In this document: piece by piece, positions 3,729-27,075 of the stretch
Layout of the letters: each line of letters starts with the position of its first letter
Numbering within the stretch: position 1 is the first letter of the stretch
Notes under the pieces: model-generated
The model's input: the letters and a program-made list of their open reading frames with translations, nothing else
Database searches by the model: none
Told to the model about the DNA's origin: nothing
Position numbers and translations under genes: made by a program
Assembly (NCBI RefSeq): GCF_002075285.3
Contig: NZ_CP021983.2
Span: forward strand, 4,140,001-4,172,000
Length of the DNA: 32,000 nt
Reading direction: 5' to 3'
Source: Halomicronema hongdechloris C2206
Lineage (GTDB): Bacteria; Cyanobacteriota; Cyanobacteriia; Phormidesmidales; Phormidesmidaceae

Positions 3729-4388
3729 ATGAGTCAATCCATCACGGTGTCCTGGTCGTCTATACCGGCTACTCAAGGATCAGTAGCCGCTCCTGACCAA
3801 CTGTCTAATTCCGAATTGATCGAACGGTGCCAAGCGCAGCTGCGGCCTGATCGAGTGGCGTTTGCCGAATTACTGCGGCGTTATCAGTCCCACATCGATC
3901 GCCTGCTGTATCATTTGGCCCCAGACTGGTCGGATCGCGCTGATCTGGCTCAGGAAGTCTGGATTCGGGTGTATCGCAATATTCGACGGTTGAACGATCC
4001 TAGGAAGTTTAAGGGATGGTTGAGTCGCATTGCTACCAACCTGTTCTACGACGAGCTGCGCAAGCGCAAACGGGTGAACCCGGCGCTCTCGTTGGATGCT
4101 CCTCGCTTACTGCATGACGGTGAGGTGGAGTGGGAATTGCCCACAGATGAGCCCAGCCCGGTCGATAGTCTGATGACTCAGGAGTTTTACGACCATCTGC
4201 AACAATCCATCGCCGAGCTGCCTGAGGTGTTTCGCACCACCATCGTGTTGCGAGAGATTCAAGGGTTGGCCTACGAAGAGATTGCCGACATCACGGGAGT
4301 ATCTTTGGGGACGGTGAAGTCCCGCATTGCTCGGGCCCGGCAACGGCTCCAGACCGACCTGCATCCTTATCTGGATGCTCACCTGTAG
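3729..4388 (+). CDS. ECF-type (group 4) sigma-70 family RNA polymerase sigma factor
   Basis: Region 2 is DLAQEVWIRVYRNIRRL...WLSRIATNLFYDELRKRKR. The region 4 HTH is YEEIADITGVSLGTVKSRIARARQRL. Confidence 0.9.
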   Translation: MSQSITVSWSSIPATQGSVAAPDQLSNSELIERCQAQLRPDRVAFAELLRRYQSHIDRLLYHLAPDWSDRADLAQEVWIRVYRNIRRLNDPRKFKGWLSRIATNLFYDELRKRKRVNPALSLDAPRLLHDGEVEWELPTDEPSPVDSLMTQEFYDHLQQSIAELPEVFRTTIVLREIQGLAYEEIADITGVSLGTVKSRIARARQRLQTDLHPYLDAHL

Positions 4389-4645
4389 CAACCGCCACAG
4401 CGCTGTGTACGGTTGTCGTCTAGCCAGCCTTCCTAGAATCAGGGATTGCATCGACTTGGGCTGACCGGTAGCCGTTATATTTACATAGCTCATAGGAATA
4501 GTGGTCAGGGCGAAGAAAACTAATCATTGTGGGGTCACGCGTTTCCTGAGGTTGCGATTAAGATCGAGGTTGACTGAGTAGTTACTACTCACGCTGCCAT
4601 CTTGTTCGATTAGGTGATCTGGTTTCGGTAGGACTCCCACCTGAT

Positions 4646-5176
4646 ATGACCTCTAAACAGTATTCGCCATTGACCTGTGAGCATCTCGCCCGTAGTCGTT
4701 CGGTTGAGACTATGCGGGAGCCGATACAGGAGTTGGATGTGATCAAGCGAGACCGTTTCGAATTGCTGAGTGCCTATCTAGACGGGGAAGTGAGCCCTGA
4801 TGAACGGCACCTAGTCAATACTTGGCTGAGTAGTGATCCGAGCGCCAAGTGTCTCTACCAGCGGCTTTTGCATCTACGTCAGGGGTTTCAAACCTCAATG
4901 CCGCCAGCCTCTCGCGATTGTGAAGCCACGATACAGGGTGTATTTCACTGTCTCAATCGGCGTCTGCGGCTAACCTGCATGGCCAGTGTTGGCGTGGTAG
5001 TCTTAGGCATCTTGGGTGGACTCTCGAATGCCTGGGCTCCCCGCCTCGGCGGAGTGGCCACGATGGTGGGCCTGCCAGGAGCCTCCAGTGGCGACCTGCA
5101 AATTACCCTGGACCAACCTGCGATCGCAATTCCCAAAGCGGGTGCCGTTGTCCCCGAGGCCCCCGTAGACAATTGA
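4646..5176 (+). CDS. Putative membrane anti-sigma factor
   Basis: Lies downstream of the ECF sigma gene. It has the anti-sigma N-terminal motif LSAYLDGEVSPDERHLVNTWL and one hydrophobic helix (LTCMASVGVVVLGILGGL). The start could be ATG 4712 instead of 4646. Confidence 0.65.
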   Translation: MTSKQYSPLTCEHLARSRSVETMREPIQELDVIKRDRFELLSAYLDGEVSPDERHLVNTWLSSDPSAKCLYQRLLHLRQGFQTSMPPASRDCEATIQGVFHCLNRRLRLTCMASVGVVVLGILGGLSNAWAPRLGGVATMVGLPGASSGDLQITLDQPAIAIPKAGAVVPEAPVDN

Positions 5177-7975: not shown

Positions 7976-7990
7976 AAGATTATAGGAGCA

Positions 7991-8062
7991 TGGGCGATAC
8001 TGGGTTCGAACCAGTGACCTCTTCCGTGTGAAGGAAGCGCGCTACCACTGTGCTAATCGCCC
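7991..8062 (-). tRNA. tRNA-Val (anticodon CAC)
   Basis: The reverse complement folds as a cloverleaf. Acceptor stem GGGCGAT/ATCGCCC; anticodon stem CTTCC/GGAAG with loop TTCACAC; T-arm ACTGG-TTCGAAC-CCAGT; discriminator A. There is one A-C mismatch in the D stem. CCA is not encoded. Confidence 0.85.
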
Positions 8063-8127
8063 GCTGGGCTACTTAATCTAGCACGACATCGGGCCAGGCA
8101 GCAATGCGCCAGGGGCGATCGAAGAGA

Positions 8128-8598
8128 TCAGGCCATATCTGAGGGCACCTGCCCCGAGGAGGGGTGCTGCAGTTGGGTCTGCAGCAGCGATTGCACATCC
8201 TGACGACGCACCTCAATGCCCTTGCGCACATTGCCAGGGGTATCGAAGAAGATGATGCTGTCGATGGGCTTCAGGGCCAGCATTTGAAACAGGATATGGG
8301 TAACGGGCAGCGGCAGGGCCATGACTTGGGGGTCTTTGACCGAGTGGGGGCCAGAGGCGACATCCTGGAGAGTGCAGTAGGCATAGACAATATTCTTGCG
8401 ATTCTCGGGTTGATTGCGATTACTCAGAGCCGTCATCACCCAATTTTGATCCAGGGTCTGCAAGATATAGTACTGGCCATGTTTGAGCTGCATCGCAATG
8501 GCTTTTAGGGTCGGTGCGATCGCACGCACCGCATCGGCTGTCATCCCATCATCGGGTGCTTCATCAATTAAGGTCTGTAGCTGCTGATCGAGATCCAT
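8128..8598 (-). CDS. Conserved hypothetical protein
   Basis: 156-aa ORF with an ATG start, host-like composition and no internal stops. No domain recognised. It is divergent from the HetZ-like gene. Confidence 0.6.
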   Translation of the reverse strand: MDLDQQLQTLIDEAPDDGMTADAVRAIAPTLKAIAMQLKHGQYYILQTLDQNWVMTALSNRNQPENRKNIVYAYCTLQDVASGPHSVKDPQVMALPLPVTHILFQMLALKPIDSIIFFDTPGNVRKGIEVRRQDVQSLLQTQLQHPSSGQVPSDMA

Positions 8599-8806
8599 GG
8601 GTTCCCTAATTCATTTGCGGCAGGTTGGTGTGCCAGTGCACTTCACCAAAGCTTTACATAGGGCTTGCTACCGGGGCAGAAGCCCCAGGCAAGTAGCTTT
8701 ACCAGAGCGTAGCATCATTGACATCGCCCCTAGTCTAGACCGAGATGCCATCAATGGGAGGACCTATGCTAGGGTTTTAAGGATCACATGCTGTCAGGGT
8801 ACTGCT

Positions 8807-9925
8807 TTGCAGAGCGTGGAAGGCTTATTTGACACACTGCTCAGCGAACTAGTAAACGCCACGCAATCTGCCGAAAAAAATTGTCGGCCCATTGCGGAGC
8901 GAATGACCCAGGAAGTCCTGCGCATCTGCTCAGAGAGTTCGCGTATTCAGGCTTCTGGGGATATTCGCCATTGGGCATTGACGTTGGGGCGACATCGCCT
9001 GAAGCAATGTGTCGGGTACTACCAGCTGGGATCCCGTCAGGGCCGGGTAGAACTCCACAGCACCCTCAGCGCCATTGTCTATCGATACATCACGCCACCC
9101 CAGGTGCAGGCTAGCTATCAGGCCCGTCTCAATCTGATTGAAGACTTCCTGCAAGGATTCTATGTCGAATCCCTCAATGCCCTGCGGCGGGAATATCACT
9201 TGCCGGACACCTACCAACCCCGCACCCTGTTGGAGCTGGCAGAATACATGGCCTTCAGTGAGCGCTATGGCAAGCGCCGCATTCCCCTGCCAGGACGCCG
9301 TAGCCAACAGCTAATTATTTTGCGGGCCCAGACCTTTGCCAAGCAGCAGCCCCCGGAAATGGTCATCGACATCGAACAGGCCACCGAATATAGCAGCAAT
9401 GATAATGAGGACTCCCGCAGTATGGGATCTTCCCAGCGGTTACGGGAGCAGATGGTGGTTCAAGACGAGGAACTGTCAGAAGATACCCTGCGCCTTCGAG
9501 TCGTCGAGGCCCTACTGAGCTATCTAAAAGATCGCGATCAGGAAGACTGTGCCGACTACTTTACCCTGCGCCTATTAGATCTGCCCACCCAGGAAATCGA
9601 ATCCCTGTTGAAATTGTCTCCACGGGAACGGGACTACTTACAGCAGCGGTTTAAGTATCACCTGCTGCGCTTTGCCCTCTCGCATCACTGGGAACTAGTG
9701 CACGAATGGCTGGAAGCCGACCTAGAGCGTAACCTGGGGCTGACTCCCCAGCAGTGGCAGAATCTGCAGGACACCATTTCCCAGAAACAAGTGAAGCTGC
9801 TGCAGCTGAAGCAGGAAGGCCATGCCGATGTTGACATTGCCCGTAACTTAGGATTAACACCGACTCAATTTCAAAAACAATGGACTAAGCTGCTAGAACA
9901 GGCCTGGGAAATTCGTAACCTCTAA
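8807..9925 (+). CDS. HetZ-related DNA-binding protein (putative)
   Basis: The core RIQASGDIRHWALTLGRHRLKQCVGYYQLGSRQGRVELHSTLSAIVYRYI and EYMAFSERYGKRRIPLPGR resemble HetZ-family proteins as I recall them. The C-terminus carries two HTH-like segments (LSPRERDYLQQRF; DIARNLGLTPTQFQKQW). The ORF is open from 8597, but the first in-frame ATG is far downstream. TTG 8807 or GTG 8816 are the likely starts, so the start is uncertain. Confidence 0.55.
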   Translation: MQSVEGLFDTLLSELVNATQSAEKNCRPIAERMTQEVLRICSESSRIQASGDIRHWALTLGRHRLKQCVGYYQLGSRQGRVELHSTLSAIVYRYITPPQVQASYQARLNLIEDFLQGFYVESLNALRREYHLPDTYQPRTLLELAEYMAFSERYGKRRIPLPGRRSQQLIILRAQTFAKQQPPEMVIDIEQATEYSSNDNEDSRSMGSSQRLREQMVVQDEELSEDTLRLRVVEALLSYLKDRDQEDCADYFTLRLLDLPTQEIESLLKLSPRERDYLQQRFKYHLLRFALSHHWELVHEWLEADLERNLGLTPQQWQNLQDTISQKQVKLLQLKQEGHADVDIARNLGLTPTQFQKQWTKLLEQAWEIRNL

Positions 9926-9949
9926 TCGTCCGGACTCGGATATTGGCCT

Positions 9950-10972
9950 ATGAAAAGAGACACAGATACCGTTAAGCAGTTCCTGCTTTGGCTTTTGCAG
10001 GACCTTGACTCGCCGGCCCCAGCATCTTCTAGGTCGGATGAGGTGTTCCTCAAGCCAAATCATGGGCCATCAGGGATTGCGTTGCAGGACACTCACGATG
10101 AATCTTGGGATCCTTTGGACCTAGAAGCTCCAGAGTTATGGGAACAGGATTCACGGGTATCACAAGACACCGATGGACAACCCCCTATTTTGGATCTGGG
10201 AGAGATACCTGCTGTGCAAGATCGTTTTCAAGCCCTTTTAAAGCGGCAACTACAACTGGATATCGAGCGGCGCCCACCCCTGTTTCCCTGGGAAAAAGAG
10301 CTGCAAGACTACCCGGTGGACATGCCCTCTGAGTTGGCCTCGACCACCCCTGGCCCGTTACCTTACCTGTGGTTACATCAGTTGCGATCGCTATCCTTAC
10401 CGACGCCCCTACCGGACGAGCTGCTGGATACTCTGCTGCAGCGATGCCAAGCCTTGATTCAGCGGCCTCTAAAGTCTGGAGTGCGGCTGGTTAAGGTGGT
10501 TGAGACCTTGTTTCCGGAGCAGCCGCAGGCGGTAGAGCGTTTGGCGGGGATGGTATTGACCCCTGCCTATCGAGGACAGTTGATGACAGACCCCGGGACG
10601 ACAGAGTTGACCTACGACCAGGCCAATCCGCAGCAACAGATGGCCTTGTCCCTGCTGGCGGCGCGCCAGATCTTTGACACGTTGATCTTAGACCTATCGG
10701 CCCAACAGCCCCAGGTCAGCCGGCAATGGATGACGGACGTCGGCCTATTGCGATTGACGGCATCCTACGAGGCCGAAGCAGCTCGGGTAATGGTGCAGGC
10801 GGAGCTGCCTGCCGCTGGTCGGGTGAGTTTAGGCCAGGCTCCTCAACGGGCCACCAGTACCAGCTCGACTGGACCTGTGACGGTAACCCTGGAGGACGTG
10901 TCTGCTCAAGTCTATGCCCTGGAGGTGGAACTAGCCGGAACCGCCTTGCAATTCGCCATCCATCTCACCTGA
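9950..10972 (+). CDS. Hypothetical protein, possibly PatU-like (assigned by position downstream of the hetZ-like gene)
   Basis: 340-aa ORF with an ATG start, 24 bp after the HetZ-like stop. It is Pro/Leu/Gln-rich. The PatU assignment rests only on the known hetZ-patU synteny. Confidence 0.5.
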   Translation: MKRDTDTVKQFLLWLLQDLDSPAPASSRSDEVFLKPNHGPSGIALQDTHDESWDPLDLEAPELWEQDSRVSQDTDGQPPILDLGEIPAVQDRFQALLKRQLQLDIERRPPLFPWEKELQDYPVDMPSELASTTPGPLPYLWLHQLRSLSLPTPLPDELLDTLLQRCQALIQRPLKSGVRLVKVVETLFPEQPQAVERLAGMVLTPAYRGQLMTDPGTTELTYDQANPQQQMALSLLAARQIFDTLILDLSAQQPQVSRQWMTDVGLLRLTASYEAEAARVMVQAELPAAGRVSLGQAPQRATSTSSTGPVTVTLEDVSAQVYALEVELAGTALQFAIHLT

Positions 10973-11004
10973 GCTAGCATAGAGGCGCCTTTACACACTG
11001 GCTA

Positions 11005-13314
11005 GTGGTGATCTCTGAACGGGTGCATCGGTCTCTTGGCCGCTTCCAACCCAGGGCGAGGCATGCCGAACGGGTGGAGGACTCGGCGGTGTTGCGGGTG
11101 CTGGTGCAGGCCCTAGTTACCATAGGCATTCTATCGGTGGCGGTGGCGGCAGCGGGGGTAACCAGCACCTCGGCTGGGAATCTCCTGGCCATTCCCCTCA
11201 GTGCCATCGGGGCGTACTGGAGTTGGCGCCAGCGGCGACGGCGCAATTTAGCGGTTAAGTTTGGCATTGCCATTGGCATGCTAGCGGCGCTGGCGGTGTT
11301 CTTAACCCGATTGTTGGCCCAGCCAGGGGATACTCGCATTGTCTTGGCCGAGTTGCTGATTCAACTGTTGGTGCTGCACAGCTTCGATCTGCCGCGGCGC
11401 AAGGATCTGGGCTATTCCATGGTGATCGGGCTGATCCTGCTGGGAGTAGCAGCCACCATCAGTCAAACCCTAGCCTTTGCCCCGTTACTGCTGGCCTTCT
11501 GGTTGCTGGCCCTGCCGGTGTTGGTGCTGGATTACCAGTCTCGGTTGGGTAAGAGCTTGCGGTCATGGCGTGATCTGGGCCGGATGGTGGCGTGGCCGCG
11601 GTTGGGGGGTGTCTTGCTGGTCACGCTAGCCCTGGGACTGGCGATCTTTGCGGTGTTGCCGCGGTTACCGGGCTATCAGATTCGCAACTTTCCCATCAGT
11701 GCCACCATCGATGTCGATGCTGACTTCGATGGCAGAGCCATTGTCAATCCGGGCTATACCAATCCCGGCCGTGGCACCGACGAGGACACGGGAGCTGGCG
11801 GTGGCGGCTTCGAGGAGGGTGGCGAGGGCACGGGCATGGCCACTGGCCCCGGTCAGTTAGACGACACCGCCTACTATGGCTTTAATCAACAGATGAACCA
11901 GAACCTGCGCGGTACCCTGACGCCCCAGGTGGTGATGCGGGTGCGATCGCAAGCGGAGGGCTTCTGGCGAGTCTTGGCCTTTGACCATTACACCGGCCAG
12001 GGGTGGGAAATTTCCCGCAATGATTCGGTGCAGACCCTAGAGCGGTCTCAATTGTCCTATCAAACGGTGCTGCCGATTCGATTCAACCGGGGCCAGTCCC
12101 GGGAAGTGATCCAGACCTACACGGTGGTTGACACCCTGCCTAACCTGATTCCAGCCCTTTACCAACCCTCGGAGCTGTATTTTCCTACCCGGGAGGTGGC
12201 CATCGATACCGAAGCCGGGCTGCGCTCGCCAATCCCGCTGCAGGCGGGGTTGACCTATACCGTCATCTCGCGGGTGCCAGACCGCGATCGCACCCGTTTG
12301 GGCCAAGCAGACACTACCTATTCAGAGGCTATTCGTCGGCACTATTTGCAGGTGCCCCCGGCCATTCGCCAACGGGTGCGGCAACAGGCCGAGGCGCTGC
12401 TAGCCACTGCCCCCAATCCCATTGAGAGCCCCTATGAGCAAGCTCTATTTTTAGCCCAAGCCCTGAAGCAGCGCTATACCCTACAACCGGAGCTGCCCTT
12501 CTTCGGAGCACAGCAGGATCTAGTGGAGGCCTTTCTTTTCACCTACGAAGGCGGCTATCCCGATCATTTTTCCACCACCCTGACGGTGCTGTTGCGCTCC
12601 CTGGGGATTCCGGCCCGGCTGGTGGTGGGGTTTGGCCCCGGAGAATTTAACCCCTTCACCGGGTTTTATGTGGTTCGCAACACCGATGCCTACGCCATGA
12701 CAGAGGTGTACTTCCCGGACTATGGCTGGTTCGCCTTCGACCCGATTCCGGGCCATCCCTTGCTGCCGCCCAGCCCCAAGGAGTATGAACCCTTGAGTGT
12801 GCTGAAACAGTTCTGGAGATGGGTGGCAGGCTGGTTACCATCCCCAGTCGCAGGCGCCCTCAATGGCATGCTAAGACACATCGGCCAGGTGATTGCCGAT
12901 GCATTGGGCTGGTTTCAGGCCATGGGCCAGGGTTGGATTGGTCTGCTGTGGAGGGCTGTGGCTCTAGTTGGCCTGGGCTTTTTCGGCTGGCTGGCCTGGG
13001 CAGTGGGGCGGTGGGGCTGGCGCCACTGGCAGTGGCAACGCCTGCCGCCCGTAGAGGCTGTCTATCGTCGCTTGCTGGTTTGGCTGCACCATCAGGGCTG
13101 GCCTAAGCAAGCCCACGAGACTCCGATAGAGTACGCTCAGCGCCTACAGCACATCCTGCCTACCCAGCAGGGCCAGGGGGTTGCCACCATCCTTTGGGCC
13201 TATGCCCATTGGCGCTACGGGGGGCTGCCGCAGAATGTGGCGGTCTTGCAGGCCACGTTGCGATCGCTACGGCGGCGCCAAAACCGTCGTCGCCGAGTCA
13301 ACGTGAGTCCTTAA
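11005..13314 (+). CDS. Multi-pass membrane protein with a transglutaminase-like domain (DUF3488/TgpA-like architecture)
   Basis: GTG start. There are about 6 N-terminal TM helices and a Gly/acidic linker. The transglutaminase-core-like segment is GGYPDHFSTTLTVLLRSLGIPARLVVGF...DAYAMTEVYFPDYGWFAFDP. A C-terminal TM region and a basic tail follow. Confidence 0.8.
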   Translation: MVISERVHRSLGRFQPRARHAERVEDSAVLRVLVQALVTIGILSVAVAAAGVTSTSAGNLLAIPLSAIGAYWSWRQRRRRNLAVKFGIAIGMLAALAVFLTRLLAQPGDTRIVLAELLIQLLVLHSFDLPRRKDLGYSMVIGLILLGVAATISQTLAFAPLLLAFWLLALPVLVLDYQSRLGKSLRSWRDLGRMVAWPRLGGVLLVTLALGLAIFAVLPRLPGYQIRNFPISATIDVDADFDGRAIVNPGYTNPGRGTDEDTGAGGGGFEEGGEGTGMATGPGQLDDTAYYGFNQQMNQNLRGTLTPQVVMRVRSQAEGFWRVLAFDHYTGQGWEISRNDSVQTLERSQLSYQTVLPIRFNRGQSREVIQTYTVVDTLPNLIPALYQPSELYFPTREVAIDTEAGLRSPIPLQAGLTYTVISRVPDRDRTRLGQADTTYSEAIRRHYLQVPPAIRQRVRQQAEALLATAPNPIESPYEQALFLAQALKQRYTLQPELPFFGAQQDLVEAFLFTYEGGYPDHFSTTLTVLLRSLGIPARLVVGFGPGEFNPFTGFYVVRNTDAYAMTEVYFPDYGWFAFDPIPGHPLLPPSPKEYEPLSVLKQFWRWVAGWLPSPVAGALNGMLRHIGQVIADALGWFQAMGQGWIGLLWRAVALVGLGFFGWLAWAVGRWGWRHWQWQRLPPVEAVYRRLLVWLHHQGWPKQAHETPIEYAQRLQHILPTQQGQGVATILWAYAHWRYGGLPQNVAVLQATLRSLRRRQNRRRRVNVSP

Positions 13315-13352: not shown

Positions 13353-14027
13353 CTACACCCGAAATAGGGTATTCCTAACCTGCTTTTGCAGCTGGCGGCT
13401 GACATAGCAATCCCCGTTGAGGCAGTCTAGCAATAGCTGATTGGCATTGTAGTATTCCTGCAAAGTCTCAATCTCAGCGTCACTAAAGTGCCAATCGTGA
13501 CCAATATCACGGTGGCGAATAAGGTGTGCCTGCAGTCGAGATACTACAGCGCCTAGATTATCCATCCACTGCTCTTGCATATCCGACTGCAATTGTAGTG
13601 TTTCCATGGTCTCTTGCCAGCCAGTCTGGAATGAGTCTTTGCTGGGAAATGAGGTGAGCTGAATCGTCGCATTAATGATCTGTAAATCGGCCTTGACCTT
13701 GTCCCAGGCTGTGAAGACTTCAGAGCTAGACTCTGAAGTCTTGGATAGTTTTTTGAGGTTACTCAGAAAATTAAGCAACAACCGATCTAGATCCATTTCT
13801 GGCTCGATTGTCGTGGAATCCAGGGGGCTAATTATCTCTTCGCGGCTGAGTGAATAGATGAAATAAAAGGCTCGAACGAAAGATTGAGGCCGTTTTGTCT
13901 CTATCTGTGACGCCTTCTGATTCACCCAGGTCAGAAACTCAATGAGCCGCGGCTCAAATGATAGAATCTCATCAGTTTTCTGCTGCATGAGCTTGATCAA
14001 ACCATCAGCCCGAGCAGACATATTCAC
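13353..14027 (-). CDS. 3' fragment of the IS-split NACHT gene (NACHT C-terminal helical region)
   Basis: It reads in frame with the 15260-16895 fragment once the IS and one target-duplication copy are removed (...FLLAVN|MSARADGLIKLMQQ...). GC is low (about 43%), like the 5' fragment. The C-terminal HDWHFSDAEIETLQEYYNANQLLLDCLNGDCYVS is typical of cyanobacterial NACHT tails, from recall. Confidence 0.75.
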   Translation of the reverse strand: MNMSARADGLIKLMQQKTDEILSFEPRLIEFLTWVNQKASQIETKRPQSFVRAFYFIYSLSREEIISPLDSTTIEPEMDLDRLLLNFLSNLKKLSKTSESSSEVFTAWDKVKADLQIINATIQLTSFPSKDSFQTGWQETMETLQLQSDMQEQWMDNLGAVVSRLQAHLIRHRDIGHDWHFSDAEIETLQEYYNANQLLLDCLNGDCYVSRQLQKQVRNTLFRV

Positions 14028-14030
14028 CGC

Positions 14031-15259
14031 AGGGCCATTTCATTCTCAAGGGGACCTAAAGATGCTAGAGTTTCAGGCTAATCCCAATGGTCCTAGCGTC
14101 TATGCGTCTGCCCCCTACCCCTACTACCCTCGACTCGAGGCATGAGCCTGCTGTAGAGCGCATCGAGATCCTCGAAGCCTTCGTTGCCCTGCCAGATGTC
14201 CGTCAGGCCTCTGGCAAACGACATCAGATGGCCTTATGCCTGGCGCTCTTCACCCTGGCGGTGACGGCCGGTAATCGTGGATTTCTGGCCATTGGCGACT
14301 GGCTCAAAAGCTACCGCAGCGAGTTGATTGACCTCTTCAACCCGCCCAAGGGCCGTCTTCCCTCCTACAGCACGATTCGCCGGGTGCTGCTAAAGCTAGA
14401 CTATGGACAGTATTCGGCGGCCTTGGCTCGGTTCTTTGGCATTGAACCGTTAGCCGGTGAAACCTTAGCGGTGGATGGCAAAGTCTTACGCGGGTCGTAT
14501 CAACTGGAGACTGACAATCCTGACTCTCCCCCTCATCCCGCCATTCTATTGGTCAGTGCTTATCTGGTGGAGCGGGGGTTGATTCTGGAGCCCTATCAGG
14601 TAGAGCACAAGACCAACGAAATCAAAGCCCTGCCCGAGTTCATTAAGCAACTGGCGCTGAAGGGGGTGGTGATAGCCTTTGATGCGATTAGCACCCAAAA
14701 AAAACTGTCAGCTCATCCTTGACACCGACAATCATTACTTGGGTGCCCTCAAAGGCAATCAGGGTAACTTGCACAAAAGCGTTCAGGCCAACTTTATCGC
14801 TGAGGACAGCTACACCGAGGTCAGTAAAGGGCATGGGCGACTGGAGAAGCGGGTCGTTAGCCTATGCACCACCCTCGATAACATCAAGCCCTGGCCAGGG
14901 CTGAAGACGCTCATTCGAGTGGAGAGTGAGCGACACTTCAAGAAGGGCGGGCAGCCTCACTTAGAAACTGAGACCCGCTACTATGTCGCCTCGTTTTTAG
15001 AATCAGCGGAATCCTTGGCTCGGCGCATTCGGGGCTATTGGGGCGTTGAAAATAAGGTACATCATATCCGGGATGTGACCCAGGGAGAAGATGCTTCGCG
15101 CATTCGTATGCACCAGTTGCCGCAAATCTTCGCCGTCGCTCGAAACTTCGCGCTCAACCTCTATCGCTCCAACGAGTTCGCCAATATGGCTCAGGCTGAA
15201 CGACTCTGCAAGTTTGGTCTAGATACCCTCAAGGCCATTTTTAGAATGAAATAGCCCTG
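14031..15259 (+). mobile_element. ISAs1-family insertion sequence (1229 bp)
   Basis: The terminal inverted repeats are CAGGGCCATTTCATTCT (14031-14047) and AGAATGAAATAGCCCTG (15243-15259), matching 16/17. A perfect 9-bp direct repeat TATTCACCG flanks the element at 14022-14030 and 15260-15268. It encloses an ISAs1-type transposase. Confidence 0.9.
14087..15254 (+). pseudogene. ISAs1-family (H-repeat-associated type) transposase, split by a frame change in an A8 run
   Basis: N-terminal motif ILEAFVALPDVRQASGKRHQMALCLALFTLAVTAGNRGFLAIGDW. Other family motifs are DAISTQKK, LGALKGNQGNL and YWGVENKVHHIRDVTQGEDASRIR. It forms two overlapping ORFs (14087-14722 and 14679-15254), and the frames meet at AAAAAAAA 14697-14704. 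Confidence 0.85.
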
Positions 15260-16895
15260 TATTCACCGCCAACAGAAATACCTCATTCCATTGCTTGTTT
15301 CTGACCTGCTCAAACACAGTTTGTAATCGCTCAAGCTCATACTCAGAGGCAATCGCCTTGGCAGCAAAGTACTCTTGAAAGCTGAGGTGAGAGAATGAGT
15401 AAATACCGTAGGCACGCTCTACAAACAAACCATGCTGTGCCTCTATAGATTTCAAGACAATCTCTCCCTGCCGTTCCATCTCATAGGGCAGGAGTTTACG
15501 ATTGCGCTTGCCCGGCAGATTGACAATATAGTTGGCGATGTAGTCGGCAAGAGTTTGTTTCCTGAAGAAAATGGCTGATTGCTCAAATGCTTGCAGGGCA
15601 ATGTGGCTTAGCATGCCTACTTTTCGAGCAACAGAGAGTTCTTGGTAGAGCTGACCCCGCTCAATATTACGGCTGGCATCCCATCGCCTTAAGAGTGTAT
15701 TAATTCCCTCTTCATATAACTCTGCCCGACTGTCTGGAAAATCTGCCTCCTCTTCGAAAACCAAGCATAGCAGGGTTAGCAATAATGGATTCGTTGCCAA
15801 CTCTTGAATCCGAGGATTTCGTTGGAGTTTTTCCAAGAAGCGGGCCGCCTTGTCAGGTGTTTGTTTATGGGTAAACCAGTGATTGGCAAACTCCTGGATT
15901 TGCTGCTCGTTGAAATCGGCAACTTCTACTTCAGTAAACTGCTCAAAGACGTATTCTTGAGCCGCAACTCGGCAGGTTAAGATAAAGCGATTCCCATGAA
16001 AATTTTCAGTAAAACTTTGGATTTGCTGATTGACTCGGTGTAAGTCTTCTATCCGTACTTCATCTAGTCCATCCAAGAGCAGTAAAACCCGTCTCTCTTT
16101 GAGTAGGTACTCGATTTCATAACCATGCACCTTCCAGGAGTCATGATCCTGAATCAGGTATTCTAGCAGACTAGGTGATCCATTCTTCTCCGCAAAATCT
16201 TTGAGGACGACAAATATGGGTAAATGGTCAGGAAAGAGTTTACGCTCGCTACACTGAATGGCTATGTGCTTGAGGAATGTAGTTTTGCCAGCACCTGGCT
16301 TACCTATGACCAGTAGTTTTTCTTGCTGTTGCACATAATCAATTCCGGATATCTTCTTCACTATTCTGCGATTCAGGCCGAAGCGATCCAAGCTATTGCC
16401 GTCATTTTTAGCTTGAAAATCCCGAAGTAGGTCATCAATCCGTAACCGTCGATGCCTTGAGACTTGCTCTAAGACATTAATCTCCGTGAAAATGCTGGAC
16501 AGTTCCAAGGGGCTCGTCATATCGAGCACTCGCATGGTACTGCACTCATTACGAATTTTTTCCCTTAATCGCTCATTAAGTTCGTTCACAAAGGCGTCGG
16601 TGTCTATGTCACTCAAACGACTAGGGTGGTTCGGATTTTCTCGGTGATATTGTTCCTGGAGAAAATAGCGGAGTCGCTCTTTCTTACCCCGCCCACCTTC
16701 CCTGAAGCTAAATTTCACATAGACATTCCCCATCCGCGCTTTATAGGCAGACAGGGAAATGTTTAGGTTCTTAATAATGACTTGATCGGTTATTTCACTG
16801 GAGAATGTCTCGACAAAGGCTTCTTCCTCAAGCGACGTCAAACCATATTCCCTCGCCAATTTGACGAGGAAATCCTGCGATATTTCTTCCTGCAT
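15219..16895 (-). CDS. HTH-NACHT NTPase, 5' fragment interrupted by the IS (last 13 codons are IS-derived)
   Basis: Walker A GKPGAGKTTFLKHIA; Walker B LLLLDGLDEV. The N-terminal LuxR/sigma-region-4-like HTH is LTSLEEEAFVETF...NISLSAYKARMGNVYVKF. Native sequence ends at 15260; TGLFHSKNGLEGI-stop is read from the IS end. ATG 16895 is preferred over the track's TTG 16946. Confidence 0.85.
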   Translation of the reverse strand: MQEEISQDFLVKLAREYGLTSLEEEAFVETFSSEITDQVIIKNLNISLSAYKARMGNVYVKFSFREGGRGKKERLRYFLQEQYHRENPNHPSRLSDIDTDAFVNELNERLREKIRNECSTMRVLDMTSPLELSSIFTEINVLEQVSRHRRLRIDDLLRDFQAKNDGNSLDRFGLNRRIVKKISGIDYVQQQEKLLVIGKPGAGKTTFLKHIAIQCSERKLFPDHLPIFVVLKDFAEKNGSPSLLEYLIQDHDSWKVHGYEIEYLLKERRVLLLLDGLDEVRIEDLHRVNQQIQSFTENFHGNRFILTCRVAAQEYVFEQFTEVEVADFNEQQIQEFANHWFTHKQTPDKAARFLEKLQRNPRIQELATNPLLLTLLCLVFEEEADFPDSRAELYEEGINTLLRRWDASRNIERGQLYQELSVARKVGMLSHIALQAFEQSAIFFRKQTLADYIANYIVNLPGKRNRKLLPYEMERQGEIVLKSIEAQHGLFVERAYGIYSFSHLSFQEYFAAKAIASEYELERLQTVFEQVRNKQWNEVFLLAVNTGLFHSKNGLEGI

Positions 16896-17152
16896 GACTC
16901 GCGGTAGATGTGCTCTTTTAACCCTGTACCCCTTATATTCAGCCAAAAATCCGGGAGCGTCAATGGTTATGGAGTCAGCCCCATTGTTGGTCTAAACGGA
17001 TACTCGATAGCTCAAAGTAAGTATTCTGCTTCCAAACCTTTGGGCTGAGAGTACTCGGATCCGTGTTATAGTTCCGGGTAGTTTATGACGACTGCAGCTG
17101 CAGAACCTAGGCTACCTCCGTCTCTCGAAGCTTAGTCATATCAGAGCCGCCA

Positions 17153-22888: not shown

Positions 22889-23950
22889 ATGACCGAGCCC
22901 CAACCTGACCGCAGCATTCGCATCGAGGACAGCGCCGTTGGCAGTGCCATCGTGTCTGGGGATGGCAACACCATCTATGTGATCCAGCAGAGTCTAGAGC
23001 AACGGCAGCCGCAACCAGCGGCAGATAATCCCGCCATTGGCCCCAACCCCTACAAGGGATTAGCGGCGTTTAAGGAGCGTGATAGCGATCGCTACTTTGG
23101 CCGGGAAGCACAAGTCGAACGACTCTGGCAGTGGTTTCAGACTCTGGTTGAGCAATCTACGGTTCCGAGAGTCCTGCCAATCTTGGGGCCATCGGGGTGT
23201 GGCAAATCTTCCCTGGCGAGAGCGGGCCTGATTCCTGAACTGGCTCGACGACCGCTACCAGGGAAAGAACAGATGCGGGTGGCGGTGCTGGTGCCGGGCA
23301 CTCACCCGGTTGCAGCCTTGGCAGGGGTGCTAGCTAAAGCTGTGACTCAAGACTCCATGCCGGTGACTAAAACACGGGAGTTTGCGGCTGAGCTGAGGTT
23401 GCAGGCTGAAACGGGAGACTACGATGGTCTGCGCCGCATTGCCAACCTGATGCCCCAGATTCAAGATTCGCCGCTGGTGATACTGGTGGATCAGTTTGAG
23501 GAGGTTTATTCGCTCTGTAAAGACGTTAGTGAGCGGCAGGCCTTTATTGAGACGTTAATCCATGCGGCGGGTGACCCGACGGGCAATGTATCGGTGGTGA
23601 TCACGCTGCGGAGCGACTTCTTGGGAGAAACCCAGCAACATCCAGTGCTGAATCAGATTCTGGGCAGCGCGGGATATAATCCCGTCGTGCAAGCCATGAC
23701 TCCAGAGGAGTTGCGCCGGGCCATTGCTGAACCCGCGAAGCAGGCTGGACATCCCCTGGATGAAGCCACGATTGATTTGCTGGTGAAGGATACGGAAGGA
23801 CGGGAGGGGGCGTTACCGCTGTTGCAATTTGCCCTGACCCGGATGTGGGACGGGTTAGGGCAGGGAAATCCCCGGCTGACCTGTACCGTGAGATGGGCGG
23901 TGTGGGCGGTGCACTGGCGGGGAAGGCTCAGGAGATCTATGAGCGTCTGA
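22889..23950 (+). CDS. nSTAND-type P-loop NTPase, N-terminal part of a frameshifted STAND-TM-WD40 gene
   Basis: After the leader motif it reads NPYKGLAAFKERDSDRYFGREAQVERL, then Walker A GPSGCGKSSLARAG and Walker B LVILVDQFEEV. The conserved LPLLQFALTRMW then runs into the out-of-frame tail GNPRLTCTVRWAVWAV. Confidence 0.8.
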   Translation: MTEPQPDRSIRIEDSAVGSAIVSGDGNTIYVIQQSLEQRQPQPAADNPAIGPNPYKGLAAFKERDSDRYFGREAQVERLWQWFQTLVEQSTVPRVLPILGPSGCGKSSLARAGLIPELARRPLPGKEQMRVAVLVPGTHPVAALAGVLAKAVTQDSMPVTKTREFAAELRLQAETGDYDGLRRIANLMPQIQDSPLVILVDQFEEVYSLCKDVSERQAFIETLIHAAGDPTGNVSVVITLRSDFLGETQQHPVLNQILGSAGYNPVVQAMTPEELRRAIAEPAKQAGHPLDEATIDLLVKDTEGREGALPLLQFALTRMWDGLGQGNPRLTCTVRWAVWAVHWRGRLRRSMSV

Positions 23951-26900
23951 ACCAGGACGAACAAGCCATTGCCAGACGGGTCTTTGTGGGGTTGGTGCAG
24001 CTTGGGGAAGGCACCCGCGATACTCGGCGACGGGCGGCGTTAGAGAGTTTGGTGGCAAGTCGGGATACGCCAGAAGCGGTGAAGCAGGTGATCCATCGGT
24101 TTGCCTCACCGGGGGCAAGATTGGTGACCCTCGCCCACGAGGCTAAGCAAGAAACGGCAGAAGTGACCCATGAGGCGCTGTTTGACCATTGGCAGCAGTT
24201 GTATGACTGGCTAGACAGCAGTCGAGACGATATTCGCTTTCAGCGGCGACTGGAGGCAGCGGCAACGTATTGGGAGAAGCAAGGACGACCTGAGGGACTG
24301 CTGTGGCGACGACCCGACTTGGATCTCTTACACACCTATTTCGCGTCTTTTCAGCAAGACATGACTACCTTACAGCTTCAGTTTTATCAAGCATCTACAC
24401 GTGCAAGAAAACTACGAAAAATTTTAGTTTGGGGAATAGTCGGGGCATTAGGAGTAATGACTGGAGGCATAGCTTGGTTTGGTCGTCAGGCACATCGAAC
24501 TGCATTTCTATCTAAGACTCAACAGTTAGCGCTGCAAGCTGAGTCTCTAGTGAGTCAACAAGAAGTACAACAACAAAAAGCAGGAGCTTTACTAGCAGTC
24601 AAGTCCTGGCAGCAGTTTCAACTGATGAAAAAATCATCCTTAGAAGTTGACCGAGCGCTCCGAAGTAGTTTAAATGTTCTCCCTGAGAGTGAGTTCATCT
24701 ATCTTGACCATATTAATGAGATTGTGTCTTGGGGTTCTATTGGCATAACATCTTTCACCATTGGACATAATTACTTTATTGACTCTGCGATCTTTAGTCC
24801 CGATGGTGAGAAAATTGTTGTTTTTTATCAAACTCCTGAAAGCTCTTTCTGGTCTGGTGAGGCGAGAATTTGGGATGTTGCGACTCAGAAGGAGATTTTT
24901 CGAATAGATCATGAGGTAACTATAGACTCTGTCACTTTTAGTTCTGACGGAGAAAAGATTTTTTACAGTAGCACAGATGAAGTGTTTTTTGGAGTAGATG
25001 TATCGACCCAAAAAGAATTGTTTCGCTTTGAATTAGATAGCCCTGTTGATTCGATTGTTTTTAACTCTGACGGAAAATCGTTTATTTTAGCTTTTAAATA
25101 CAATCCTTACTTGCTAGAAATTCGGGATATTAAGAGTGGCAAGAAAATTCGTGAAATTACTGACTTAGATCTGTTTCAAGATTTTTCGTTTAGAGTAGAT
25201 GATGCAAAAATTATCTCTATCAATTTGGAGGGTATAGTAAAGACATGGGATATCCATACTGGAAAAGAGATAAATCAAATACAAATAGCAAATCTTCAAA
25301 AGTTTGACTATGCGGTTAAATTAAGTCCTGATGGGAAGCGGTTCATTTCTAGTAGCGAAGGCGATGATGGCATATTGCTATGGGATACTTTCAAAGGATC
25401 TAGAATTTCTTGGATCAGTCACGCAGACTATTACTCTGCTTTATTCAGTCATAATGGCAAATGGTTCGCTTTTCTTGACAAAGACGGAGTTTTGAAGGTA
25501 CACAGATCCTCTGATGGAAAAGAAGTTTTTTATTCTCAGGATGGTCTTGAAGTTAAATCTTTCAAATTTAGTCCCAACGAGAGTCAGATAGCCTTTGTGA
25601 CGGCGGATGATATGGTAAGAGTATGGAGTATCAATGTCAGAAGAGAAGTTGCTCGCTTTAATCATGAGGGATATATTCGAGCAATTAATTTTAGTCTTGA
25701 TGGAACGAAAATTGCTTCTGCTAGTGTCACAGATACTGGCTTAAGTAATTACTGGATTCCTCTTGATATGCCAACTCTAAAAGTTTGGAATGTTGACACT
25801 GATACTAACGAAGAATTTTCTCTCAAACACAATGATAGTATTAACTTTGCTACTTTTAACCCAGATGGAACGAATGTTATTTCTGCAAGTGATGACGGAA
25901 CAGCAAGATTATGGAACACATATACTGGACAAGAATTGAAAAGTTTTGATCATAAAAATCCAGTTTTATTCGCATCGTTTAATCCCACCAAGAATCAAAT
26001 AGTTTCTGTTGATGCTGACAAAACGTTACGAGTGTGGGATATCAAAACTGGCCTAGCATTAGAGGAAATAAAGCATGAACACAATATTGAATTTGCTGCC
26101 TTTAGTGCTGATGGAAGTCGATTATTCTCTTTAAGCTACAGTGGAGATCGTGAAACTCCGATTTCCAATAGGGATAGTACCATTAGAGTATGGGATACAA
26201 ATGACTATAATGAAATAATTCATACTGATTCTGGATTTAACAGAAATATCTTCTTCAGCTCTGATAGTAAATGGCTTGCTCATTATGATGGTGAAGACTG
26301 GAGGTTTTGGAATACTGATACTGGGCAAGAAGTTTCTGAGCCTAATTACCGAAAGGGATTTCTTATTAATTTCAGGGATTTGAGGACTCAGTATTTCAAC
26401 CCTGAAGCGTGGGATAGAGGAAAACCATTTAGTCCGGATGGAAGCCGGATTTTTCGAAGTGACAGCTTGTTTAATAGAGGGTTGGTAGAGATTTTAGAGC
26501 TTCCTTCTGAGCGCAATAAGATAAGCCAGTTTACTCATGGCCATCAATTTAATGATGCAGATTTTAGCCCCAATGGTGAACTTATAGTCTCTTCTAGTGA
26601 TGATGATACGATAAGAGTCTGGAAAACTTCCGATGGTTCAGAAGTCGCTCGATTTAGTCATAAGAACACTACCTCTGTAGCTTTTAGTCCTGATGGGACT
26701 CGAATTGTCTCCACCAGTGCTAACCACACAGCAAAGATATGGCTGATTGATACAGCAGAGTTGGCTGCGAGGGTTTGTCAGAGAGTCAAGCGAAATTTGA
26801 CCTCTGAAGAATGGCTCAACTATATTGGCTCAGAATTAACAGAATACGAATTAACTTGCCCAGACTATCCAGTGCATCCTAGCCTTCTTGATAGAGCAAG

Positions 26901-27075
26901 AATTGATGCTGCACGTGGTGATATTCGTTCATCTATAGTTCTCTTAAATCATCTTATTAGGATCAGTAAGACGGCTGGTCACACCGTTGATTTAGATCCT
27001 TCAACGGAGAGCATTGAACAAGATCCTAAAGCTTACTCGAATAAAATTGCAGCAGATAGCGAGGCAGAACAGTAA
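23845..27075 (+). CDS. C-terminal part of the same STAND gene: helical region, one TM helix, about 14 degenerate WD40 blades and a Cys-containing tail
   Basis: The frame is -1 relative to 22889-23950. KSPADLYREMGGVGGALAGKAQEIY...GEGTRDTRRR continues the family-typical sequence. The TM helix is ILVWGIVGALGVMTGGIAWFG. WD40 signatures include FSPDGEKIV, DDGTARLWN, DKTLRVWD and DDDTIRVWK. The tail is RNLTSEEWLNYIG...LTCPDYP. Confidence 0.8.
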   Translation: MGRVRAGKSPADLYREMGGVGGALAGKAQEIYERLNQDEQAIARRVFVGLVQLGEGTRDTRRRAALESLVASRDTPEAVKQVIHRFASPGARLVTLAHEAKQETAEVTHEALFDHWQQLYDWLDSSRDDIRFQRRLEAAATYWEKQGRPEGLLWRRPDLDLLHTYFASFQQDMTTLQLQFYQASTRARKLRKILVWGIVGALGVMTGGIAWFGRQAHRTAFLSKTQQLALQAESLVSQQEVQQQKAGALLAVKSWQQFQLMKKSSLEVDRALRSSLNVLPESEFIYLDHINEIVSWGSIGITSFTIGHNYFIDSAIFSPDGEKIVVFYQTPESSFWSGEARIWDVATQKEIFRIDHEVTIDSVTFSSDGEKIFYSSTDEVFFGVDVSTQKELFRFELDSPVDSIVFNSDGKSFILAFKYNPYLLEIRDIKSGKKIREITDLDLFQDFSFRVDDAKIISINLEGIVKTWDIHTGKEINQIQIANLQKFDYAVKLSPDGKRFISSSEGDDGILLWDTFKGSRISWISHADYYSALFSHNGKWFAFLDKDGVLKVHRSSDGKEVFYSQDGLEVKSFKFSPNESQIAFVTADDMVRVWSINVRREVARFNHEGYIRAINFSLDGTKIASASVTDTGLSNYWIPLDMPTLKVWNVDTDTNEEFSLKHNDSINFATFNPDGTNVISASDDGTARLWNTYTGQELKSFDHKNPVLFASFNPTKNQIVSVDADKTLRVWDIKTGLALEEIKHEHNIEFAAFSADGSRLFSLSYSGDRETPISNRDSTIRVWDTNDYNEIIHTDSGFNRNIFFSSDSKWLAHYDGEDWRFWNTDTGQEVSEPNYRKGFLINFRDLRTQYFNPEAWDRGKPFSPDGSRIFRSDSLFNRGLVEILELPSERNKISQFTHGHQFNDADFSPNGELIVSSSDDDTIRVWKTSDGSEVARFSHKNTTSVAFSPDGTRIVSTSANHTAKIWLIDTAELAARVCQRVKRNLTSEEWLNYIGSELTEYELTCPDYPVHPSLLDRARIDAARGDIRSSIVLLNHLIRISKTAGHTVDLDPSTESIEQDPKAYSNKIAADSEAEQ

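Follow-up and report, generated by a model that had tools for sequence, protein, structure and literature searches.

An ISAs1-family insertion sequence with a transposase in two reading frames interrupts an HTH-NACHT-NCH2 gene in Halomicronema hongdechloris C2206

Results

The locus and its features

The stretch of DNA analyzed here, referred to as the window in the following, comprises 32,000 nucleotides of the cyanobacterium Halomicronema hongdechloris C2206 (NCBI RefSeq assembly GCF_002075285.3, contig NZ_CP021983.2, positions 4,140,001 to 4,172,000 of the forward strand). On its minus strand it carries a gene for a STAND NTPase with a LuxR-type helix-turn-helix (HTH) domain, a NACHT domain and a C-terminal NCH2 domain, which is interrupted by an insertion sequence (IS) of the ISAs1 family, the transposase of which is in turn distributed over two open reading frames (ORFs) (Table 1). 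The insertion is read directly from the DNA. Taken as a whole, the arrangement is very probably explained by transposition into a single HTH-NACHT-NCH2 gene, which was probably inactivated thereby, of an element whose transposase would be made by slippage. For annotation this means that three ORFs should be taken as a single disrupted HTH-NACHT-NCH2 gene together with an IS.

Table 1. Features of the interrupted gene and of the insertion sequence. Positions are those of the window.
Feature	Positions	Strand	Remarks
5' gene fragment	15269..16895	-	native codons 1-545 from ATG at 16895
LuxR/GerE-type HTH, N-terminal	16674..16859	-	residues ~13-74; predicted from family profile
NACHT NTPase domain	15867..16316	-	PF05729, 72.1 bits (cut-off 26.7); Walker A and Walker B
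Gene read-through into IS	15219..15259	-	13 IS-encoded codons TGLFHSKNGLEGI, then stop
3' gene fragment	13353..14029	-	C-terminal 222 amino acids from M546 plus stop; mechanical listing gives a 224-residue GTG ORF
NCH2 (NACHT C-terminal helical domain 2)	13359..13613	-	PF22727, 82.6 bits (cut-off 27)
Target-site duplication, left copy	14021-14029		TATTCACCG
ISAs1-family insertion sequence	14030..15259	+	1,230 bp; end-to-end alignment with copies elsewhere; both transposase halves above NF033564 cut-off
Left terminal inverted repeat (IRL)	14030-14046	+	CAGGGCCATTTCATTCT; same terminus in 38 full-length relatives
Transposase ORF1	14087..14722	+	211 amino acids; DDE_Tnp_1_assoc and first half of catalytic domain; stops six codons past A tract
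Transposase ORF2	14679..15254	+	+1 frame, open from 14676; second half of DDE domain
A8 tract, putative slippage site	14697..14704	+	CAAAAAAAAC; transposase frame changes here
Right terminal inverted repeat (IRR)	15243-15259	-	reverse complement CAGGGCTATTTCATTCT; contains transposase stop codon
Target-site duplication, right copy	15260-15268		TATTCACCG

Reconstruction of the interrupted gene

On the minus strand, the upstream fragment ends with ...WNEVFLLAVN and continues as TGLFHSKNGLEGI followed by a stop codon within the IS, the codon for the T of TGLFHSKNGLEGI straddling the boundary between duplication and IS at 15260, while the downstream ORF begins with (V)NMSARADGLIK. Both fragment ends are as given in a preliminary description of this DNA, which had furthermore proposed that removal of the IS restores one in-frame ORF of about 770-785 amino acids. 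When the IS and one copy of the duplication were removed in silico, a stop-free ORF of 2,355 nucleotides was indeed obtained, amounting to 784 codons from an upstream in-frame TTG at 16946, the mechanical start of the 5' ORF, and to 767 amino acids from the ATG (MQEEIS) at which the homologues start.

More than 4,500 homologues of the reconstructed protein were found in the 5.8 billion proteins searched. Within the best 120, the sole protein that ends at the junction is the 558-residue product of the window itself (P0002); the other 119 are single proteins of 660-864 amino acids, almost all of them cyanobacterial, and nearly all of these cover 75-100% of the reconstructed protein. The junction ...EVFLLAVN/MSARAD... 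lies within a gap-free block of an alignment of 13 sequences, where it is flanked by invariant residues on either side (W536, E538, V539 and L542 before it, M546, A550 and D551 after it). The best homologue (P0001, 74% amino acid identity) is encoded on a contig, L071, that shares two upstream genes with the window, and the DNA of L071 is colinear across the empty site without a gap (...CTAGCAGTGAATATGTCATCC... as compared to ...TTGGCGGTGAATATGTCTGCT... in the reconstruction). The empty site itself reads CAGTGAATA in this orthologue, as compared to CGGTGAATA in the window, which corresponds to the duplication in reverse complement. The orthologue with its 74% identity serves as a proxy for the empty site only; the contig of the nearest relative does not carry this gene, and an exact scan of a metagenome collection for the 34-nucleotide empty site did not yield a match.

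Could the two NACHT-related ORFs be separate genes that adjoin in frame by coincidence? Matching frames have by themselves a chance of one in three, and the 224-residue ORF possesses a GTG/ATG start. However, homologues neither end nor start at the junction, proteins of about 770 residues span it within a gap-free conserved block, the DNA of the syntenic orthologue runs colinear across the site and NCH2 in the 3' part is a NACHT-associated domain. Homologues ending where the 5' fragment ends had been named beforehand as a possible refutation of a single gene, and there is none in the best 120 besides the product of the window. As judged from homologue spans, junction alignment and colinearity of the orthologue, the notion of separate genes is refuted, and we assign it a negligible probability.

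An alignment with 12 intact homologues contains 161 columns in which these do not vary; at four of them the reconstructed protein deviates, always conservatively. So few changes at invariant columns plausibly fit a recent insertion but give no date for it.

Boundaries and relatives of the insertion sequence

The preliminary description had placed the IS at 14031-15259. Its end was correct, while its start was off by one base and is in fact 14030, so that the element measures 1,230 bp. The 17-bp inverted repeats said to bound it were found with this length and at this place, though direct reading reveals that IRL and the reverse complement of IRR agree at 16 of 17 positions and are thus not identical. 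The closest IS relatives exhibit the same C/T mismatch between their terminal repeats, which read CAGGGC(C/T)ATTTCATTCT in the present element. In the window, the terminal 17-mer occurs at two places only, with none expected from 100 shuffles. The target-site duplication TATTCACCG is perfect over 9 bp, as had been described, and its tenth base does not match. Independent copies in other cyanobacterial genera align with the IS over positions 1-1230 at 82-88% nucleotide identity, and 12 related IS copies are accompanied by target duplications of 9-10 bp of their own. The boundaries and the 9-bp duplication therefore agree with independent relatives, as is characteristic for a genuine transposition event. 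IS copies are classic trouble spots in assembly, and a collapsed or misplaced repeat might in principle have produced an IS within a gene. A misjoin, however, would not create a perfect 9-bp duplication exactly at the tips of both inverted repeats, and the length is typical of the IS clade, such that an assembly artefact appears highly improbable. With regard to GC content, the predicted value of about 55% for the IS is close to the measured 54.1%, while the approximately 43% stated for the gene proved slightly low (45.1 and 46.8% for the two fragments; 53.3% for the window).

Both transposase halves score above the cut-off of 70 bits set for the NCBIfam model of ISAs1 transposases, NF033564 (ORF1: 87.7 bits, profile positions 3-152; ORF2: 123 bits, profile positions 151-313), in full agreement with the family originally suggested, and they also match Pfam families PF13808 (DDE_Tnp_1_assoc) and PF01609 (DDE_Tnp_1). 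The best match for the IS among GTDB representative genomes stems from Nodosilinea sp. LEGE 07088 (90% amino acid identity). A megablast search of a plasmid collection with the IS returned no match, and a distant search of the same collection returned relatives at 64-72% only. Exact look-ups of the truncated NACHT protein and of the transposase ORF1 product gave no matching record.

Some further properties were noted in the course of these comparisons. The C-terminus of the transposase, ...FRMK-TAG, lies within the right inverted repeat AGAATGAAATAGCCCTG (15243-15259), and the terminal RMK is conserved in full-length relatives retrieved as protein, most of which end with LFRMK. Since this conserved end and the stop codon overlap the right inverted repeat, the repeat sequence is doubly constrained. 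In L020 (CAWCKX010000002.1, locus 3901-4784), which belongs to a metagenome-assembled genome (MAG) with multiple copies, foreign DNA of about 0.9 kb interrupts ORF2, possibly as a nested insertion. Three near-identical members of the clade (L007, L050 and L064) were found on short contigs assigned to MAGs of Dermatophilaceae or Bacteroidota, for which mis-binning is more likely than transfer across phyla.

Domain architecture of the NACHT protein

The NACHT domain is encoded in the 5' fragment and NCH2 in the 3' fragment, such that the two are now separated by the IS. In the 767-residue protein, Walker A (GKPGAGKT) is located at residue 198 and Walker B (LLLLDGLDE) at residue 271; the former corresponds to the pattern GxxxxGK[ST] and the latter, with DGLDE, to the pattern D[GAS]hDE that sets NACHT apart from other STAND clades (Kibby et al., bioRxiv 10.1101/2022.07.19.500537). 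Of the HTH-NACHT label applied to this gene earlier, the second part is thus firmly established, while the first holds at the level of the family profile only: The N-terminal 117 residues of the window protein do not match any Pfam family even at E<=10, whereas a profile built from 24 homologous N-termini matches GerE (1fse_A, E=4e-6) as well as the DNA-binding domains of VraR, VpsT and ComA, and 10-11 of these 24 N-termini individually match PF00196 or PF08281. In one close homologue, the LuxR-type domain is replaced by an N-terminus that resembles an Xre-like HTH when judged by eye (...LTNQKLAGELQVTRQPVDNFFNGKP...). This swap of an Xre-type for a LuxR-type domain supports the view that the N-terminal position is occupied by a DNA-binding output module.

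When the protein was compared with the PADLOC defence models, matches were obtained at the level of the P-loop only, and its scores with the NCBIfam models for antiphage NACHT proteins (EruA, DS8) were far below the cut-offs. By its architecture, the protein would be a nucleotide-gated DNA-binding switch or sensor.

Consequences of the insertion and genomic setting

The events at the locus can be pictured as follows. An IS with a DDE transposase of the ISAs1 family has inserted at codon 545/546 of a STAND NTPase gene on the chromosome with the order LuxR-type HTH, NACHT, helical region and NCH2, and filling in of a staggered target cut has given rise to the 9-bp duplication. The truncated product of 558 residues retains the HTH, the NACHT domain and the helical region following it, has gained 13 IS-encoded residues and lacks the C-terminal 222 residues including NCH2. 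As these NCH2-bearing residues are lost and the 3' piece is devoid of the promoter and the start used by homologues, the gene is most likely inactivated. A truncated HTH-NACHT protein could, on the other hand, keep or even gain activity, which would speak against inactivation. A polar effect is not expected because the neighboring gene is convergent.

The contig of the closest relative (L082) exhibits 85% nucleotide identity to the window over 5.3 kb (window positions 7990-13300) including an orthologue of TgpA with 89% amino acid identity. The similarity stops exactly after the TgpA-like gene, around position 13300, where the GC content drops as well. With this loss of synteny, the NACHT gene is situated at the margin of a region that is variable. 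Window genes without counterpart in L082 comprise the NACHT gene with its IS, a small NfeD-like ORF, a gene for an HTH_3-Peptidase_M78 protein, an nSTAND1-WD40 gene and a PIN gene, and the region beyond about 13300 looks like a variable region of conflict genes. Low GC content, the break in synteny and a location in a variable region together with other conflict-type genes imply that loss of the NACHT gene was probably tolerated.

Further downstream, at 24-27 kb of the window, the GC content falls to 35-46%. A second STAND NTPase gene on the plus strand (22889-27075) is also split: One ORF (22889-23950) covers positions 1-240 of the nSTAND1 profile and another one in a different frame (23845-27075) covers positions 248-378 as well as WD40 propellers, with the frame changing near 23858-23878. 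As the nSTAND1-WD40 gene is split, too, the window holds two disrupted NLR-like genes.

The knockout of a non-essential, horizontally mobile NLR-like gene by an IS in a variable region is a routine, ordinary phenomenon. The insertion might be employed as a marker for the strain. What exceeds the ordinary is solely the conserved change of frame at the A tract of the transposase, which we regard as a lead.

Distribution of the frame change in related transposases

The distribution of the transposase over two frames had been overlooked in the preliminary description. It was studied on 70 related loci sampled from contigs with one genome per species, and in almost every one of them the frame switches at one common codon. 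This position lies within the catalytic domain and directly follows an FDA motif, which may contain the second catalytic Asp. Full-length elements (the window copy plus 37 others) contain A7 in 23 cases, in about 20 of which ORF2 lies at +1, A8 with ORF2 at -1 in 13 cases, while two are in frame by other routes. A7 is two bases and A8 one base short of an in-frame tract, and in-frame relatives from metagenomes carry A9 or A10, then reading QKKTC or QKKNC. Both +1 and -1 layouts are present among close relatives, e.g., L029 vs. L017, and a correctly phased A_AAA_AAA heptamer is found in the -1 class. Acaryochloris plasmids in RefSeq feature the same A7 and A8 layouts, annotated as two coding sequences for "ISAs1 family transposase". 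The sequence CAA-AAA-A is invariant in all relatives, while nine out of ten other conserved K/Q codon columns vary between A and G.

In one A8 element, L002 (CALNYB010000051.1), the frame has been regained because 4 bp (GAGC) were duplicated shortly downstream of the tract; L036 and L037 from the same MAG are without this duplication and out of frame.

Independent translation of ORF2 is unlikely as a general solution. An in-frame ATG, derived from the FDA codons (TTTGATGC), is available in the +1 class only, the same bases give TGA in the -1 class, and some elements, e.g., L031, are without any start near the tract.

A functional split or a pseudogene

Homopolymers are prone to indels, in-frame A9/A10 relatives exist, and frameshifted transposases were treated as likely pseudogenes in a study on the IS elements of Acaryochloris (PMC8763236). 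The window copy might accordingly be a dead relic or contain a homopolymer sequencing error, with the A tract as a mutational hot spot. Several observations argue against this. The window copy reads A8-C-TGT where its nearest relatives read A7-CC-TGT, i.e., the total length is equal and the difference is a C-to-A substitution instead of an indel, which renders a homopolymer sequencing error unlikely. The split is common to whole subclades across genera, with ratios of nonsynonymous to synonymous substitution rates (dN/dS) of 0.05-0.17 in both transposase halves across the clade. In a subclade from six genomes in which all copies are split, dN/dS of ORF2 amounts to 0.06-0.14 at synonymous rates (dS) of 0.33-0.92, and the 182 codons following the tract are free of stops. 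Split copies that are identical to one another have recently moved by transposition: A single MAG harbors four of them, all with A7 and identical over 1,233 bp, at four sites with different duplications, and two identical A8 copies likewise reside at separate sites with duplications of their own. Finally, A7 outnumbers A8, whereas single-step decay from A9 would lead to the reverse. Decay or sequencing error therefore appears unlikely to us. From its conservation and mobility, the split state of the transposase is to be judged long-lived and functional, and the IS in the window shows no visible degeneration: Its termini, the two transposase ORFs and the position of the frame change are laid out in the same way as in related elements.

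Proposed slippage on the A tract and alternatives

We propose that slippage on the A tract would give rise to the full-length transposase of this IS clade, a trans-frame protein that would read ...DAISTQK(K)NCQLILDTDNHYLGALK at the junction, while ORF1 alone would lead to a truncated DNA-binding product. On the basis of the conservation outlined above, slippage-dependent, programmed expression of the transposase is a reasonably probable interpretation. Among the conceivable mechanisms, realignment of RNA polymerase is favored, given that +1 as well as -1 layouts are found; the presence of both shift directions within a family has been taken to point to transcriptional realignment and not to a single ribosomal mechanism (Antonov et al. 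2013, PMC3711429). Ribosomal frameshifting may still apply to the -1 class in view of its phased A_AAA_AAA heptamer. For the wider proposal, i.e., that a widespread cyanobacterial ISAs1 clade employs programmed slippage on an A7-A10 tract within the catalytic domain, with realignment as the likeliest mechanism and the number of A residues in the genomic tract determining how much truncated protein is made relative to the full-length form, we see the balance tilted slightly in its favor.

A number of points weigh against programmed slippage. The combination of A8 with ORF2 at +1, as seen in the window copy, recurs in no other sampled element. All four of the identical A7 copies come from a single MAG, which is maybe a long-read assembly; however, A7 was likewise observed in assemblies, several in number, that from their contig names (NODE_/cov_, k127_, ilm_asm) seem to have been produced with short-read assemblers. 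Tracts of seven or eight A residues are short for efficient slippage by RNA polymerase. An RNAalifold analysis of 14 diverse elements detected no conserved RNA structure near the A tract (-2.3 kcal/mol, no compensatory pairs), and a stimulatory conserved structure was rejected on account of the weak energy and the missing compensatory pairs. In addition, in-frame A9/A10 relatives could mobilize split copies in trans.

The last point is also part of an explanation at the DNA level, according to which replication slippage toggles elements between OFF (A7/A8) and ON (A9/A10), such that ON copies alone make transposase and may move OFF copies in trans. Such phase variation would equally keep both ORFs under selection and agrees with the occurrence of tract lengths of 7, 8, 9 and 10, sometimes within one sublineage. 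It is less easily reconciled with the MAG containing four identical A7 copies, as no in-frame copy was detected among its six loci, with the two-base change needed to turn A7 ON and with L002, in which the frame was restored by duplication and not by a change of tract length. We consider phase variation possible but rather doubtful, albeit not as improbable as decay of the transposase gene.

If the split is programmed, current annotations and estimates of IS activity undercount active cyanobacterial ISAs1 elements, which are abundant in Acaryochloris and in the Leptolyngbya/Nodosilinea group, and numerous split ISAs1 transposases of cyanobacteria, at present either annotated as fragments or regarded as pseudogenes, would belong to active elements.

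Comparison with known systems

The interrupted gene resembles bacterial bNACHT genes, many paralogues of which are present in cyanobacteria, in that it specifies a NACHT domain with a DGLDE Walker B motif, a domain at the N-terminal effector position and a C-terminal helical domain (Kibby et al., bioRxiv 10.1101/2022.07.19.500537). It differs from bNACHT in having a LuxR-type HTH instead of a toxin-like effector at the N-terminus. The combination of a STAND NTPase with a GerE/LuxR-type DNA-binding domain is shared with STAND regulators of the MalT/AfsR type and, by analogy, suggests transcription control gated by ligand and NTP. MalT carries its HTH at the C-terminus and its NTPase belongs to another clade, whereas the protein described here combines an N-terminal HTH with an NTPase of the NACHT type.

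Members of the ISAs1 family, such as ISAs1, IS1358 and ISEc1/H-repeat, are described in ISfinder as elements of about 1.2-1.5 kb with CAGGG-tipped inverted repeats of about 17 bp and target duplications of about 8-10 bp, and the element in the window fits this description in its size, its CAGGG repeats and its 9-bp duplication. To our knowledge, the family has been described with one uninterrupted transposase ORF, whereas the present element and most of the sampled cyanobacterial relatives change frame at the A7-A8 tract. The assignment to ISAs1 stands on homology, and the organization with two ORFs is best viewed as a variant layout. Frameshift use by ISAs1 elements was not found described in the literature searched; the families named in a review on recoding from 2016 are IS1, IS3, IS5 and IS630 only (PMC5009743), and +1 and -1 layouts within one family have been reported for clusters of DDE_Tnp_1 and IS630 (PMC3711429). 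As in IS1, IS3, IS5 and IS630, an upstream ORF for DNA binding would be fused to a downstream catalytic ORF at an A-rich run. Unlike in these families, the putative shift falls within the catalytic domain and not between domains, and it is not accompanied by a conserved RNA structure. If programmed slippage holds true, ISAs1 would join IS1, IS3, IS5 and IS630 as a recoding family.

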